From: Candidatus Saccharimonadota bacterium
GTDB taxonomy: Bacteria; Patescibacteriota; Saccharimonadia; Saccharimonadales; JAGQMS01
DNA length: 40,410 nt
Reading direction: 5' to 3'
NCBI GenBank assembly: GCA_043719125.1
Contig: JAYSUL010000024.1
Span: 1-40,410, forward strand
In this document: piece after piece, positions 4,435-31,679 of the stretch
How the letters are laid out: every line of letters begins with the position of its first letter
Numbering within the stretch: the stretch's first letter is position 1
Made by a program: the position numbers and the translations under genes
The notes under the pieces: model-generated
The model's input: only the letters and a program-made list of their open reading frames with translations
Told to the model about the DNA's origin: nothing
The model's database searches: none

Positions 4435-5961
4435 CTAGTTATCTGGGTTAGCTGTCATGAGGTCGAGGAAATCTTGGCCTCTATAGCCAATGATCCGTTT
4501 CCTGCTCGCATCCATTTTGTCGTATCGGCTAAGCAGTAGACTACCGAGACGGGGGACCTTTTTGACCATCAGCCGATGACCGTCGACAAATCGCCAAAAC
4601 AGTCCATCCCAAATATCACACCATGGGCCCTTATCGTAACGGCTCATCGCAAGTATAGTATTGCTGGAGCACAGGCTTTGTCGGCCAGATAATTTACCTT
4701 GTTGTATAGACTGACCTAGTGAATACACACTCGGGAGCGTCACCCATTCATACGAATCAACGAAAGAGCACATAAACCACTGATATACATCGTCTGGATG
4801 TATATCACACATCATCATAAAGTTACCGACGACTGTCAGTCTCTCGCTGTGGTGTGCGTAGCCAAAATCATTTACTTTTTTTATAACTGCGTCTACTGGT
4901 GGCATACCGGTTGTACCAGCGTACCAGTCATCAGTCAGCCGTCGATTATTACCGAGTACATTTTGCGAACGAAGCTTGTCTCCACTCGTTACATATAGCG
5001 CACGCGCATACTCACGCTGACCGAGGATATTACGTATAAAGCCCTCAAGGCTAGCTATAGGTATTTCCTTTTTTGTAGATGCGCAGAAGTCCATCGCCGC
5101 CTCGACAACTTCCTGGGGTGATACAAGTCCGATATTGAGCATCGGTGAGATAGCACTATGAAACAGCCAGACACCGCGCTCATCAACAATATCCTGGTAC
5201 TCTCCATAGCTAGATAGTCGGTTTGCAAAAAAGTCCTTTAGCCACGCCAGTGACTCGACCCTATTTGTTGGCCAGAGAAAGGTATCAGTTCGCCCTGGGT
5301 TAGAAGGAAACTTCAGCTCGACGTGTGTAATAGCTTCACGGACAAAGTCATTATCGCCAAAGCTTGATATACCTGGAAGCGGCGTATCCTTGTCTAGCCT
5401 TGTTTCCTCTTCTGACCCAAAGCTCCATTTTCCACCGACAGGATGATAGTTTTTGTCGATCAATACATCAAAGCGCTCTCTCTGATACTGGTAAAAATCT
5501 GTAAAACTCGGTGTGTCTTTGCCAGTAAAGTACGCATCTATATCTTTTTGTCTTAGATAGAACCCCGGGTTTTCTAGCTTTCGCAGTGGGACGTGCACCT
5601 CGAGCGCCTGCGATGCAGATTCAAGTCTGCGCCAAAGCCTAGAATCAATCGGGTCGAATACAACGATCTCACTTGCTCCCTCGAATGCAGCTCGTACAAG
5701 TGCAGTATCAGTAACTACGTCTGTTCCAGATTCAACATACTCCACTTCGTAGCCATTGGGCCAAAGCACTTCCTCGGCGTAACGACGCATGCTTGCCCTT
5801 AGCAGCACTAGTCGCTGTTTATGGAAGCTCATTGGAAATTCTTTATCATTGCCGAATAGCAACGGTTCTTCAACAAGGTAAACTCGTTGTACCTTCGGTA
5901 GAAGAGACACTTCAAAAAGCTGATTTGGATACAAAAGTAGTGCGGTGCCCATATATAGCAC
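4435..5961 (-). CDS. Cryptochrome/photolyase-related protein (COG3046, FeS-BCP / (6-4) photolyase-like)
   Basis: 508 aa. The LLLYPNQLF start, the overall COG3046 layout and four C-terminal Cys (MMCD, FMCS, SLCSS, PWCD) fit the Fe-S cluster ligands of this class. Start is GTG at 5961 or ATG at 5952. Confidence 0.8.
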   Translation of the reverse strand: MLYMGTALLLYPNQLFEVSLLPKVQRVYLVEEPLLFGNDKEFPMSFHKQRLVLLRASMRRYAEEVLWPNGYEVEYVESGTDVVTDTALVRAAFEGASEIVVFDPIDSRLWRRLESASQALEVHVPLRKLENPGFYLRQKDIDAYFTGKDTPSFTDFYQYQRERFDVLIDKNYHPVGGKWSFGSEEETRLDKDTPLPGISSFGDNDFVREAITHVELKFPSNPGRTDTFLWPTNRVESLAWLKDFFANRLSSYGEYQDIVDERGVWLFHSAISPMLNIGLVSPQEVVEAAMDFCASTKKEIPIASLEGFIRNILGQREYARALYVTSGDKLRSQNVLGNNRRLTDDWYAGTTGMPPVDAVIKKVNDFGYAHHSERLTVVGNFMMMCDIHPDDVYQWFMCSFVDSYEWVTLPSVYSLGQSIQQGKLSGRQSLCSSNTILAMSRYDKGPWCDIWDGLFWRFVDGHRLMVKKVPRLGSLLLSRYDKMDASRKRIIGYRGQDFLDLMTANPDN

Positions 5962-5988
5962 TAGTATAAACCGCTTACGGTAAGTTTC

Positions 5989-7656
5989 CTACATTTTTTC
6001 GGGAGCTTGTATGCCCAGGATAGAAAGTCCATCCCCAAGTGTCTTTGCGTATTCACTCACCAAAGTAAGCCGGACCGCCTCTCTCGGATCGCCCACTACA
6101 AGATTGTTCTCATAGAATTTATTAAACTCCTGCGCCAGTTCATAGAGGTAGGTACATATAGTGTGCGCGGCGTACTCGGTCGTTGCCTGAAATAGTATTA
6201 CCTGGTACTCGGCGAGCTTCCTTACAAGCTGTCTCTCGCCAAGTTCGAGCTGCACCACCTGTGCAGGCTCTACGGCTGATTTGCCCAAGATACTTTTTGC
6301 CCTAACGAGTGCGTATTGCAGGTATGGGCCACTATTACCATGGAGGCTAACGGATCCCTCCGGATCAAATGCAATATCACCACCCAGTCTATGCTTGAGG
6401 AATTCGTACTTCACCGCTCCAAGATAAATCTGCTCATCCCGCTCGGGATCGCCTGAGTCACCCACCGCTTCCCTCACGGCGCATAGCACATCCATGGCAG
6501 TCGTTACATTGCCTGTTCGTGAAGACATTTTAGTCCCATCACCAAATCGAATTAGTCCGTTCGTCAGATGCGTCATCTTTGTGCGAATTCCCGGAAGTAT
6601 ATGGTCGGCTGCCTGCCACACAACTTTCATATATTCTGTCTGTTCTTTTCCGGTGATCAAAATTCGATGATCAAAGGGAAATTCTTCCATTTCTATCATG
6701 ATGAGGCCCAGATCTTTAGCCTCATAGGTAGGGAGTCCTTCCCTAGTTATGAAAACTCTCGTATGCAGGCCATCCTTTTCGCCCTCGTATACGACAGCAT
6801 CTTGAGATTTTGCGAACACAGAGCCGACATGAGCTTCAACTTCATGTCTACCACGAGCTTCGGTTGAGCTTTCCGGATAATACTTTTCGAACCCAGTTAC
6901 CTTTAGTTCACGGTATAGCCGTTCAAAATAGTCTCGACACCAGTCTCGACACGTAAAATATATCTGGGCAAACGGTGAAGTCGTATCTCCCGTTGCGTGC
7001 ATTGCATATATACGTTTGTTAACTTCTAGAATCTCAGCGCTAACTGCGTCGTCATCATTCGTATCTGCCTTTGCGCCATCAACGTAACGTTCGGCAATAA
7101 ATTTTGTACGCTCATCAGTAAGTATATCGTTGAGTTTTTCCGGAAACTCACCACCAATATTTTTAATTATTCCCCATAGGGCACGCGCCGCGCTCAAGCC
7201 TACATCAGCGCCAAAGTTGGTTCTGTGCACTATCGCCCCGCTTCTCTCGACCATTCTAGCAACCACGTCACCATAGATCGTTTGGTATAAGTGCCCAGCG
7301 TGCAGTTCTTTGAAATAATTTGGGCAAGAATACTCAATAACGTATCTCTTTCCCGCAAAAACATCGACGTCTCGCCTCGATGCAGCGTCCCAAAGGTCAC
7401 CATCCGAAGCCCAAAGATTGATAAACCCAGGTCCAGCAACCTCTGCTTTTACACCACCTGTATTAAGTCTATCGACCAAAGTCTGAGCAATTTCTCTCGG
7501 ATTTTTCTGTAGCTTTCCAGCGATTTGCATCGCGACATTCGTTGAGTAGTCGCCGAACTTTGTCTCGGGGATAGTCAGCTCAATATCTGCCTCAATCTCA
7601 AAAAGCTCTCTGACGAGAGACTTAATTTGATCAATAGTTTTTTGCTTTAACTCCAT
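5989..7656 (-). CDS. argS: Arginine--tRNA ligase
   Basis: 555 aa with a class I HIGH-type motif (HAGHL), a KMSKS-like KMSSR, and the typical ArgRS C-terminal anticodon-binding domain ending in M. Confidence 0.95.
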   Translation of the reverse strand: MELKQKTIDQIKSLVRELFEIEADIELTIPETKFGDYSTNVAMQIAGKLQKNPREIAQTLVDRLNTGGVKAEVAGPGFINLWASDGDLWDAASRRDVDVFAGKRYVIEYSCPNYFKELHAGHLYQTIYGDVVARMVERSGAIVHRTNFGADVGLSAARALWGIIKNIGGEFPEKLNDILTDERTKFIAERYVDGAKADTNDDDAVSAEILEVNKRIYAMHATGDTTSPFAQIYFTCRDWCRDYFERLYRELKVTGFEKYYPESSTEARGRHEVEAHVGSVFAKSQDAVVYEGEKDGLHTRVFITREGLPTYEAKDLGLIMIEMEEFPFDHRILITGKEQTEYMKVVWQAADHILPGIRTKMTHLTNGLIRFGDGTKMSSRTGNVTTAMDVLCAVREAVGDSGDPERDEQIYLGAVKYEFLKHRLGGDIAFDPEGSVSLHGNSGPYLQYALVRAKSILGKSAVEPAQVVQLELGERQLVRKLAEYQVILFQATTEYAAHTICTYLYELAQEFNKFYENNLVVGDPREAVRLTLVSEYAKTLGDGLSILGIQAPEKM

Positions 7657-29207: not shown

Positions 29208-29237
29208 TTGACAAGTATGTTTTACGAAGAGTATAGT
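29208..29237 (+). promoter_or_regulatory. Near-consensus sigma70-type promoter with no downstream protein gene
   Basis: TTGACA (29208-29213), 18 nt, TATAGT (29232-29237). Confidence 0.65.
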
Positions 29238-29296
29238 TTGTCTCAATCTCTTTTGTGAGAGATAGTGGTTGATCATATTGATCCCACGAACCTTAA

Positions 29297-29909
29297 CAGC
29301 ACGAACAAATGATACGTTTAGTCAGCATCCAGCCCACAACAGAAGCTTCTGGGTTGAATGCTGACTAAACAGATGAAGTAACTACAGCTTTGTAAAGACC
29401 CGCTCAAGGTCGTAGCGCTTAGCCCAGACCCAATAGGGAAAAGGTAGCAACGCAACTAAACGAAGAAAGACTTCATCTATGGTAGCCGACGGCAGTCGAT
29501 AAGTGCATTCGGAGAATCCCAAGCAAGCATCTCCCCCTGTGGGGGAGGGAGAGGAATTCTGAAATGACCCATCCAACGCTGACCGACCGTGCGCAGGTTG
29601 CGCATCTGGTCGACACCGTCCATCACCCGAGTGTCGAAGACATCACCGGCATCGACGGGACCTGACCGAGGCACCCGCACCAAACTACCGTTGTGTCTGA
29701 AGGGGCGCTGACGGAAAGTACGATTCCCTTCGAGAACTACCCAGGTACAGGGTCGGACTTCGTGTCCGACCCTGTACCCCCAAAAGATCTACGTCCCCGG
29801 ACGACTCTGAGAAAGACCTCCTCCTTAGAATTGCCTGAGTGGGCGAGGCATGCCGGGTGTGGAGCCGATTGCTCCACACCCGGCAGCGGGATTTCATTTG
29901 TTCGTGCTG
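29297..29909. repeat. 16-bp perfect inverted repeat flanking a 581-nt high-GC core
   Basis: cagcacgaacaaatga (29297-29312) is the exact reverse complement of tcatttgttcgtgctg (29894-29909). Confidence 0.9.
29564..29665 (+). CDS. Possible 33-aa sORF inside the candidate RNA (weak)
   Basis: ATG lies 9 nt after gggagggagagg. Translation MTHPTLTDRAQVAHLVDTVHHPSVEDITGIDGT, with G/C-rich third codon positions. The SD can pair with the upstream ctccccc (29531-29537). Confidence 0.2.
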   Translation: MTHPTLTDRAQVAHLVDTVHHPSVEDITGIDGT

Positions 29910-29926
29910 AACAACCAGCATTATTT

Positions 29927-29956
29927 AAAAACCACCAGTAGCTCGGTGGTTTTTTC
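29927..29956. terminator. Bidirectional intrinsic terminator
   Basis: aaaaaccacc-agtagctc-ggtggtttttt, with an A run and a T run on the two sides. Confidence 0.7.
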
Positions 29957-29972
29957 GTATTCTTAGATGTTA

Positions 29973-30047
29973 CCTGCCAGAGATTTTAGGCTCTGGCAGG
30001 GAGGGGGAGGAAAGCCGACAACGCTGGCGGCTTTCCTCACTCCCTCC
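29973..30047 (-). terminator. Two GC-rich hairpins downstream of the 154-aa gene
   Basis: cctgccagag-attttagg-ctctggcagg (perfect 10 bp, 29973-30000), and gaggaaagccg / cggctttcctc (11 bp, 30007-30038) with outer G/C-rich extensions. Confidence 0.55.
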
Positions 30048-30059
30048 TGTCCGCCCGTG

Positions 30060-30524
30060 TTAGGCGATCTGCTTGCCCATTGGCCGTCTCTTGATGAGAG
30101 ACTCGCGACGCATCCTCCTTTGACGATTGAAGTCACTGGTCGGGTCGCTGAGCTCAGACATGACACCGTTACAGGCACTACTTGCGCTCTGTGGCTTGAA
30201 TGAGCTCTTGATCTCAGCCAATACACGTCCCGCAGCGTGCGAAACATGACTCAGGTCATACCTGGAGGAGCTCGGACCCTGGACGACAAGTCTTTGATGC
30301 TTGCTGTCGAACACCAACTTGACGTTGGGGTTGGCTCTCTTGGCCGCCTGGACCAAGAGAATAAACGATGACTCCCATTCTACGTAATTACTCACGGAAA
30401 TCGGGATACACCATCTCATTCCTTGCTTGAACGCTTCACTGAACCGAATCTCAGCCTTACCCAGCTGACACTGTATCGCGCCAACCATGACTGGCTGAGT
30501 TTCGAGCGGTGGCTTACGTTTCAT
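30060..30524 (-). CDS. Orphan hypothetical protein with a basic C-terminal tail
   Basis: ATG at 30524 (GTG at 30530 also possible), preceded by taggtg. 154 aa, MKRKPPLETQPVMVGAIQ...RRMRRESLIKRRPMGKQIA. No family recognised. Confidence 0.55.
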   Translation of the reverse strand: MKRKPPLETQPVMVGAIQCQLGKAEIRFSEAFKQGMRWCIPISVSNYVEWESSFILLVQAAKRANPNVKLVFDSKHQRLVVQGPSSSRYDLSHVSHAAGRVLAEIKSSFKPQSASSACNGVMSELSDPTSDFNRQRRMRRESLIKRRPMGKQIA

Positions 30525-30539
30525 CGACACCTACTTCAC

Positions 30540-30575
30540 TATAGTTGGACAGGAATATTATAATAACATAATTTG
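30540..30575 (-). promoter_or_regulatory. AT-rich candidate promoter for the 154-aa gene
   Basis: On the minus strand: TATAAT (plus-strand 30557-30562) with only a weak -35 (TTATTT at 17 nt). A second TATAGT lies closer to the start. Confidence 0.35.
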
Positions 30576-30576
30576 C

Positions 30577-30605
30577 AATAAATAAAACCCCTCAAGCTTG
30601 GGGTT
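30577..30605 (-). terminator. Intrinsic terminator after the 93-aa gene
   Basis: On the minus strand: aacccc-aagcttga-ggggtt followed by ttatttatt. Confidence 0.65.
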
Positions 30606-30756
30606 CTGTGTGTGATAAATAATCTTAGTCGTTGCCGGAGGCTCTGTCGATGTTTCCATCAACGAGCTTCTCCGGCGTATTGTGACCCCCTTGGGGGAGG
30701 TTGGTGCGGCCTCACGGGACCTGCTTAACCTCCTCCCCCTTAGCGATCTCCGCCCG

Positions 30757-31038
30757 CTACCGAGCGATCGGCTTCAGGCCGAAGCCGAACGTAGCCAGTA
30801 CCTCCCGCAGGAAGCTCTCGATCATCCCAATGGACGCGCGCTTGTAATCGATCACGATGTTCGTTCCCCTTCGAGTGACGGCGTAGACCCACGACTGGGC
30901 CCCGATCGTCTCCCGGAAAGCCTCGATATCTGCAATCTTGCTTCCTGCCCCCAACAGGGTAGCCGTGAAGTAGTTCTCGCTTCGCGCGAGCTTCACGGCA
31001 ACTTCGGGTGTGGCATTCGGTACGGATTTCTTCCCCAC
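30757..31038 (-). CDS. Orphan 93-aa protein, high-GC coding sequence
   Basis: GTG at 31038 lies 5 nt after AAGGAGG (31044-31050); an upstream ATG at 31059 has no SD. 37/60 G+C at 30781-30840, with strong G/C preference at third codon positions in this frame only. No family recognised. Confidence 0.6.
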   Translation of the reverse strand: MGKKSVPNATPEVAVKLARSENYFTATLLGAGSKIADIEAFRETIGAQSWVYAVTRRGTNIVIDYKRASIGMIESFLREVLATFGFGLKPIAR

Positions 31039-31095
31039 TGGAACCTCCTTGTTATGCATGATCAGCGGGTGCTGACCAAGTTTCCAGTAAAATTG

Positions 31096-31123
31096 ATTAT
31101 ACAACCTTTTTATATATAGTCAA
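31096..31123 (-). promoter_or_regulatory. Consensus sigma70-type promoter for the 93-aa gene
   Basis: On the minus strand: TTGACT (31118-31123), 16 nt, TATAAT (31096-31101). It sits back-to-back with the groES promoter. Confidence 0.65.
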
Positions 31124-31499: not shown

Positions 31500-31679
31500 T
31501 TAATCAATATCTATAGAGCACTAACCAACCACGGTTAAGCACCTTACCAACTCGAGTAAAGAACAAGGCGACGTATGCGTCGGCAGACCGAGCCGTACAA
31601 ATGTACGGTGAGAGATGACGATGAATACGGCAACGATGTTATTTGCCGAGGAGTAAGATGCGCTCATGAAAGGAAAAAA

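Follow-up and report, generated by a model that had tools for sequence, protein, structure and literature searches.

What is encoded in the spacer between murE and groES of a Saccharibacterium, where a near-consensus promoter leads into some 700 nt that end at a terminator? We addressed this question in a 40,410-nt stretch of DNA (contig JAYSUL010000024.1, assembly GCA_043719125.1), hereafter the window. Its host is a Saccharibacterium; the four top GTDB matches of its MurE are all from Saccharibacteria metagenome-assembled genomes (47–51% identity). A preliminary description had proposed that the interval is a promoter-to-terminator unit producing a structured RNA of ~0.7 kb that belongs to no known class, and this proposal is supported by the lack of Rfam matches, by covarying homologues and by strand-specific RNA signals. 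With a probability of roughly 70%, the unit is predicted to be a free-standing gene for a large structured non-coding RNA (ncRNA), representing an undescribed family that occurs, as far as searched, in one clade of Saccharibacteria. It would fall among the large structured bacterial ncRNAs.

The unit lies directly 3' of murE and upstream of groES. Its predicted transcript, on the + strand, is 712 nt long, with an inferred start at ~29244, and its features are as follows (H, local leader hairpin; P, helix of the transcript; sORF, small open reading frame; SD, Shine-Dalgarno; L022 and L045 are related loci introduced below).

29208–29237, + strand: promoter of the sigma-70 type, TTGACA-18-TATAGT, matching 11 of 12 consensus positions
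29246–29263, + strand: leader hairpin H1, AUCUCUU/GAGAGAU, near-invariant in relatives
29265–29287, + strand: leader hairpin H2, built on a GUGG/CCAC base, its inner stem variable
29284–29302, + strand: conserved linker CCACGAACCUUAACAGCAC, single-stranded until the start of P1 at 29297 and including the first 6 nt of P1
29297–29312, + strand: 5' arm of P1 (leader strand of the closing helix), complementary at 16/16 positions to 29894–29909
29313–29893, + strand: core domain, type A, 581 nt with many hairpins, enclosed by P1
29316–29370 (29316–29339/29347–29370), + strand: long hairpin P2 just inside P1, its outer 13 bp perfect
29564–29665, + strand: candidate sORF of 33 codons, MTHPTLTDRAQVAHLVDTVHHPSVEDITGIDGT, preceded by SD-like GGAGAGGAA
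29584–29612, + strand: nested hairpin within the candidate sORF, in which CGACC/GGUCG is replaced by CGAUC/GAUCG in L045
29744–29758/29764–29778, + strand: perfect 15-bp GC-rich hairpin, its stem identical in L022
29851–29865/29871–29885, + strand: perfect 15-bp GC-rich hairpin, the final helix ahead of the P1 3' arm
29894–29909, + strand: 3' arm of P1 (trailer strand), forming a perfect 16-bp long-range helix with 29297–29312
29910–29926, + strand: conserved 3' tail AACAACCAGCAUUAUUU, with the family consensus AACCAGCAUAAUUCAAAA
29927–29956, + strand: intrinsic terminator, a 10-bp stem followed by a T run (29927–29954)

The promoter, the terminator and every helix listed in the preliminary description are present where it had placed them, and the fold exceeds that of shuffled sequences (z = −9 to −12). 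Six sites of the form TTGACA-N16-18-TANNNT occur in the window, versus 1.5 expected, and the promoter of the unit is the best of them. The minimum free energy (MFE) of 29244–29956 is −294.7 kcal/mol, compared with −213 ± 7 for dinucleotide shuffles (z = −11.9); in a second folding run, the unit scored z = −9.0, versus +0.3 and −1.5 for equal lengths of murE and groEL, respectively. By simple arithmetic, ~2e-4 perfect inverted repeats of 15 nt or longer are expected in 713 random bases, versus the three that are present. The base of P2 reads GUUU..CAG/CUG..AAAC. The core is also richer in G+C than the window as a whole (54–60% vs ~46%), in line with the GC-rich core noted previously.

Relatives of the unit were gathered by exact-protein look-ups with GroES and MurE homologues and by one metagenome pattern scan. 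With the window included, we identified the unit directly after murE at 13 distinct loci, the MurE proteins of which are about 62–88% identical to that of the window. The complete units are 663–981 nt long, all share the promoter and the terminator, and they are listed here with the type of their core.

Window: core type A, 712 nt
L022: core type A, 714 nt
L045/46: core type A (distant), 750 nt
L023: core type B, 728 nt
L025: core type B, 731 nt
L029: core type C, 663 nt
L031-35: core type D, 930 nt
L036-37: core type D, 981 nt
L030: core type E, 771 nt
L039/40: core type F, 872 nt
L052: core type G, partial unit
L053: core type G, 849 nt
L054/55: core type H, 929 nt

The preliminary description had implied that the unit is a private insertion; instead, it is conserved at the same locus across the clade. 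The order of elements is the same in every unit: promoter, H1, H2, linker, P1, P2, interior, GC-rich hairpin, tail and terminator. TTGACA and the −10 element are kept in all 13 related loci, with a spacer that varies between them, and the linker, the pattern of which has a single match in the whole window, is kept in all variants (family consensus CCACGAAC-N-UUAACAGCAC). P1, present in all units with 11–18 bp, joins the 5' region to the 3' region and surrounds all that lies between them. Just inside it, every variant has P2 as a hairpin of 17–25 bp, the base of which resembles GUUUC..CAG/CUG..GAAAC in all types including B, then an interior of 500–860 nt with 10–20 hairpins and, directly before the P1 3' arm, a GC-rich hairpin of 11–22 bp. 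The terminator is found in all relatives with compensated changes in its stem, and an A-tract upstream gives it a bidirectional appearance. When the 11 complete units were folded, z ranged from −6.7 to −15.6 and one common MFE architecture was obtained. A covariance model, R1, found one copy per locus in the 233 kb searched.

The preliminary description had also suggested looking for homologues with compensatory changes in its helices, and such changes are present in the related Saccharibacteria that carry the unit at this locus. P1 was tested in a gapless alignment anchored solely on the invariant AGCAC and GUGCU. Eleven of its 15 pairs have changed on both sides, in 26 cells, versus 2–4 in slid controls, and none of 500 shuffles matched the observed covariation score or the paired-cell measures. 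H2 and P2 were tested together in a sequence-only MAFFT alignment of 12 sequences, which contained 70 cells changed on both sides (9–21 in slid controls; reached by 0/500 shuffles), and 18 of the 20 pairs of P2 show compensatory changes. The inner stem of H2 exists in covarying variants (GAUC/GAUC, AGAAA/UUUCU, GAGC/GCUC and GAGCA/UGCUC), and its loop is a GNRA tetraloop, GUAA or GAAA, in L045, L030, L053 and L039. For H1, covariation is uninformative because this hairpin is near-invariant. Inside the core, a 3' module common to types C and D has 16 compensated pairs, versus 0–2 in slid controls, with 95% of cells paired, and the window and L045, both of type A, differ by compensations in P2, H2 and the hairpin at 29584–29612. 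Thus, the pairing of P1, P2, H2 and one interior module is kept through changes on both sides. In a single-sequence test, the MFE structure of one sequence was scored on a second sequence, and paired positions changed at about half the rate of unpaired ones (six comparisons; p = 0.04 to 1e-5).

The strand was tested by two counts, which replaced the uninformative refolding of the reverse complement. With the structures fixed, the sense orientation holds 69 G·U cells versus 27 A·C cells, and GNRA/UNCG tetraloops number 25/74 on the + strand, versus 1–5 in shuffles and 5/66 on the reverse complement. As G·U pairs and these tetraloops are enriched on the + strand only, selection acts on RNA, namely that of the + strand.

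The interior within this common frame comes in at least eight sequence-unrelated types (A–H). Between P2 and the last hairpin, types A, B, C/D, E, F and G have no detectable similarity to each other; the type H core, which was outside the similarity and k-mer comparisons, looked different on inspection. Within a type, the opposite holds. The units of the window and L022 are 90% identical, whereas the 4-fold-degenerate sites of their murE genes are 41% identical, near saturation; for L052 and L053, the respective values are 74% and 34%. The first ~370–440 nt of the unit are 63–64% identical between the window and L045. Judged from these comparisons, the interior is far more conserved within a type than are the synonymous sites of murE. 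However, the murE of L023 is as distant from that of the window as the murE of L022 is, and yet the cores of the window and L023 are unalignable; because identity is high within types and absent at the same murE distance, the interior types are considered discrete. Type A was found at 100%, 88% and 66% MurE identity to the window and other types at 89%, 76% and 75%, so that the distribution of types departs from the MurE tree. The conservation of each type would therefore be due either to purifying selection or to its recent spread by transfer, with types swapping between lineages. The conserved flanks would permit homologous replacement of cores, and Saccharibacteria are naturally transformable (PMC10633639).

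Types C and D have a further feature. The P1 3' arm (AUCUAUGCUC) can be bound by an internal segment, GGGUAAGAU, instead of the P1 5' arm (2414–2422 with 2692–2701 in L029; equivalent columns in L031 and L036). This arrangement might represent a switch or an alternative pairing.

One related locus, L047 (69% MurE identity), yielded no unit after murE. A different AT-rich foldback of ~700 nt is located there (5330–6040), closed by a helix of ~60 bp (z = −12.7), with no promoter match and no groES following it.

The leader of the unit resembles that of rRNA operons. In Escherichia coli rrn operons, the promoter is followed by a boxB stem-loop, boxA and boxC, and a leader-trailer helix, which is the site of RNase III action, encloses the rRNA (PMC10250234). 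In the unit, the covarying H2, with GNRA loops in four relatives, occupies the boxB position, and P1, present in all units and covarying, corresponds to the leader-trailer helix; the enclosed RNA has no match to any rRNA model. The rrn boxA of E. coli reads CAC-UGCUCUUUA-ACAA (PMC2724277). The linker, CAC-GAAC(C/A/U)UUA-ACAG, agrees with it at 5–6 of 8 core positions and in both flanks, although the boxA of this clade may differ from that of E. coli. Written as CAC-GAACNUUA-ACA, or as CACGAACNUUAACA for comparison with the rrn leader, this boxA-like motif is a lead only, which rests on analogy.

Nevertheless, the leader suggests how such an RNA could be made. Complexes of Nus factors assembled at boxA shield long untranslated transcripts from Rho, and they act beyond rRNA too (PMC5725501). 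The unit might copy the design of an rRNA operon, with its promoter, stem-loop, boxA-like motif and leader strand of a leader-trailer helix. Because this order mirrors that of the rRNA operon, we propose that the leader could recruit the Nus antitermination machinery, so that RNA polymerase would reach the end of a transcript that is long, untranslated and rich in hairpins without being stopped by Rho. P1 would join the ends co-transcriptionally and may serve as a stalk for RNase III processing, and the product would accumulate as a stable RNA acting in trans. Given that the cores are type-specific and yet well conserved, each type could recognize a strain-variable partner. More speculatively, and as a tentative proposal that we consider possible but not probable, the interior might consist of horizontally exchanged ‘idiomorphs’ set in a frame like that of an rRNA operon; purifying selection would act on each type and diversifying or balancing selection on the locus, and the RNA would then be a determinant of strain specificity. 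In these ultra-small bacteria of the candidate phyla radiation (CPR), such specificity could come into play in recognition between epibiont and host, in conflict with phages or competitors, or in self/non-self discrimination.

The remainder of the murE-groES spacer is occupied by two small genes on the opposite strand, and the unit is thus not simply inserted between two core genes, as previously described.

30060–30530, − strand: gene X, a small orphan of 156 aa with homologues in L029 and L045
30757–31104, − strand: gene Y, a small orphan of 93–115 aa; eight loci have homologues, among them L042, where the RNA unit is absent

Because both have homologues at related loci, X and Y are considered real genes; Y is missing from L023. 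In a search of 5.8 billion proteins, X and Y matched near-identical relatives only, and an exhaustive search gave 9 weak matches that do not indicate a function. Gene Y of the window is 27% identical to that of L022, whereas the adjacent RNA units are 90% identical, so that the RNA, rather than the neighboring genes, is the conserved element.

Several other observations were made around these genes. The region 29400–31100, which comprises the RNA core, X and Y, has the highest G+C content of the window (54–62% in the majority of 200-nt windows, falling to 44% at 30400–30700; overall ~46%), and as a whole it may differ in history or constraints from the rest of the genome. Both ends of the spacer are spanned by a 33-nt imperfect inverted repeat (29193–29225/31087–31119, 73% complementary), the arms of which carry inward-facing near-consensus promoters, one for the RNA unit and the other for gene Y; this repeat probably reflects similarity of promoters and UP-elements rather than transposon ends. 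Just past the stop codon of Y (30633–30757) lies a conserved element, which is also present in L022 (5402–5529), L023 (3252–3426), L025 (1407–1558), L030 (6242–6307), L053 (6252–6372) and L054 (~6330–6440); in relatives without X, it directly follows the terminator of the unit. The element, which has compensatory changes at six pairs, is composed of UGCCGGAGGCUC-hairpin-GAGC..CUCCGGCA, then a CCCC-loop-GGGG hairpin and then a near-invariant GAUCUCCGCCCGC, and could be the 3' untranslated region (UTR) of Y or a separate + strand element. Further downstream, groES and groEL are separated by 180 nt in the window (31500–31679), compared with 8–10 nt in L022, L023, L024, L027 and L045. This spacer contains a conserved, structured core of ~110 nt, CAAGGCGAC..GCGUCG.CAGACCGAGCCGUAC-loop-GUACGGUGAGAGAUGGCGAUGA, the hairpins of which covary (MFE z = −5.7; no Rfam match); this core is also present in L030 (7105–7261), L039 (6180–6388) and L042 (7219–7423). 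It may be a second unannotated RNA element, one of the groESL operon and present in some relatives only.

Could the unit be a highly divergent member of a known family, such as RNase P RNA, transfer-messenger RNA (tmRNA), signal recognition particle (SRP) RNA, 6S RNA, a group I or II intron, OLE, GOLLD, ROOL or HEARO? In size, and in having its ends closed by a helix, it is reminiscent of RNase P RNA, tmRNA, introns and the ornate RNAs. However, the cmscan comparison with Rfam proposed in the preliminary description found only tRNAs in the window at the gathering threshold and nothing for the unit, and across 4227 families there was nothing meaningful at E ≤ 10 for the unit of the window or at E ≤ 1 for seven other variants. 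The best sub-threshold matches were to microRNA-precursor or RNAI hairpins, at 15–31 bits compared with thresholds of 47–97, so that all eight variants yield only matches at the level of chance hairpins. OLE, GOLLD and ROOL are represented in Rfam. Furthermore, close strains have unrelated cores, which is incompatible with a housekeeping RNA, and we consider such a divergent relative extremely improbable. ARAGORN finds three tRNAs only in the window, and tmRNA was rejected. A CRISPR- or ToxI-like repeat RNA was rejected as well, there being no tandem repeats and only short direct repeats at chance level. So was a retron or other reverse transcriptase-associated ncRNA: no reverse transcriptase gene adjoins the unit, and the ORFs of the murE-groES spacer had no match below E = 0.06 or near curated cut-offs in Pfam, PADLOC, PHROG and NCBIfam. 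GGA loops of a CsrB-like sponge were not seen by eye. The whole spacer and seven variant units had no blastn match in phage and plasmid collections, and a scan with a core pattern gave no match. Three matches of the leader pattern in IMG/VR were rejected as due to chance, as they lie inside AT-rich coding sequence and have no further similarity. No comparable ncRNA of Saccharibacteria or CPR bacteria was described in the literature searched. That the unit is instead an mRNA, or a dual-function RNA, for the 33-aa product of 29564–29665, its structures serving as UTRs, is unlikely in our view. The earlier statement that no protein gene lies in the unit holds insofar as no ORF is common to all types; it is qualified by this candidate of type A, which has SD-like GGAGAGGAA 9–10 nt upstream of its ATG. 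The start codon, SD and open frame are kept in all three type A sequences, among which there are some third-position changes; the L045 version, which a gene caller predicts as a 40-aa gene, differs by an in-frame indel of 9 nt. However, SD-led ORFs of this kind (33–40 codons) were found in type A only and not in types B–H, the ratio of synonymous to non-synonymous changes between the window and L022 (5 vs 5) is not significant, and the stop position and C-terminus are not conserved. In addition, the conserved nucleotides of the sORF double as a covarying hairpin, and ~85% of the transcript would be UTR, though conserved and covarying. A peptide may be made from the type A sORF, yet the function that the RNA family has in common must be a different one because the other types lack such an ORF.

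The most serious rival, although quite unlikely, is that the cores are foldback or miniature inverted-repeat transposable element (MITE)-like mobile or foreign DNA that has landed repeatedly in a hotspot after murE, with P1 as terminal inverted repeats and with incidental transcription. The arms of P1 do qualify as terminal inverted repeats, with the shared termini CAGCAC...GUGCUG, and the cores are discrete, unrelated, swapped between lineages and higher in G+C than the genome; L047 has its AT-rich 700-nt foldback at the same position, and the neighbors X and Y vary too, with Y missing from L023. Yet neither of the other hallmarks of a MITE was seen: dispersed copies are lacking, with one copy per locus in 233 kb and a linker that is unique in the window, and inspection of the P1 boundaries by eye revealed no target-site duplication. 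Moreover, the site is always the same, an empty frame was never encountered, and homology fades gradually from P1 into P2 with no sharp edge. The unit also has a promoter, leader, tail and terminator of its own, all of them conserved, and enrichment of GNRA/UNCG tetraloops and G·U pairs on one strand only is not expected of a DNA element. This strand asymmetry also speaks against a role in cis or at the level of DNA, in which a hairpin array with a strong convergent promoter would insulate murE and groESL, repress X and Y through interference or antisense transcription, or act as an origin or a recombination site. The unit is indeed convergent with X and Y, shares with them a bidirectional-looking terminator and is followed by a conserved element. 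However, interference would not call for 600–900 nt of RNA structure that is specific to a type, covaries and has stable tetraloops. Furthermore, the conserved terminator is a strong one, Y is present without the unit in L042, and Y has diverged between the window and L022 far more than the unit. We consider a role of this kind very unlikely.

Several points weigh against a free-standing ncRNA gene as the explanation of the unit. Each core type is represented by only 1–3 distinct sequences, and the alignments used for testing had also served to derive most of the structures. The promoter and terminator were identified only as consensus matches, and the boxA-like motif matches the E. coli consensus at just 5–6 of 8 core positions. 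The unit was not found in the syntenic L041-44 group (L042) or in the four GTDB Saccharibacteria with ~50% MurE identity. Many of the helices are long and perfect, beyond what the classical ornate RNAs show. Motifs and k-mers shared between the unrelated cores of types A–G do not exceed those of shuffles, which is unusual for an RNA with a single conserved function. The identity within types could stem from recent horizontal transfer instead of purifying selection, and there is a plausible sORF in type A.

Large structured RNAs of new classes are seldom found in bacteria. As a genome of ~1 Mb keeps a strongly promoted non-coding gene of 0.7–1 kb at one locus throughout the clade, the RNA probably has an important part in the epibiotic lifestyle. 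An rRNA-style leader that produces a non-ribosomal RNA would, if confirmed, be new biology, and so would a conserved frame with interchangeable, unrelated and individually conserved cores. The frame of promoter, leader and terminator may further offer a natural cassette site or expression module for the emerging genetics of Saccharibacteria (PMC10633639).

To conclude, we compare the putative ncRNA gene with the systems that it resembles. Like MITEs and foldback elements, it has terminal inverted repeats and a foldable non-coding interior, and in those elements, too, unrelated interiors may share termini; it differs from them in its single-copy, fixed locus, the lack of target duplication, its transcription signals and its strand-specific RNA signatures. 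Intervening sequences (IVSs) of rRNA are excised at their closing stem by RNase III, and some contain small ORFs. IVSs and rRNA spacers are, like the unit, strain-variable, structured segments closed by a helix between conserved flanks, whereas the unit lies outside rRNA genes, is bounded by a promoter and a terminator of its own and shows strong conservation within types. OLE, GOLLD and ROOL (PMC12286853) are independently transcribed, as the unit is predicted to be, heavily structured, non-coding, 600–1000 nt long and narrowly or patchily distributed. Their cores are conserved and contain many short helices, with junction nucleotides that are conserved as well; the unit, which has no sequence or structure match to them, is conserved only at its ends and encloses unrelated interior types with long, often perfect helices, and no association with phages or tRNAs was seen at the unit. 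From an rrn operon, the unit differs in its non-rRNA interior, partial boxA match, own intrinsic terminator and strain-hypervariable interior, and its P1 has 11–18 bp compared with the >17 bp needed for the E. coli 16S helix. In both, however, a strong promoter is followed by one or more stem-loops, a single-stranded motif with a CAC...YUUAACA core and the 5' strand of a long-range helix, which closes with a sequence 3' of a large, folded, untranslated RNA, and stable GNRA and UUCG tetraloops are abundant in the unit, as in rRNA.

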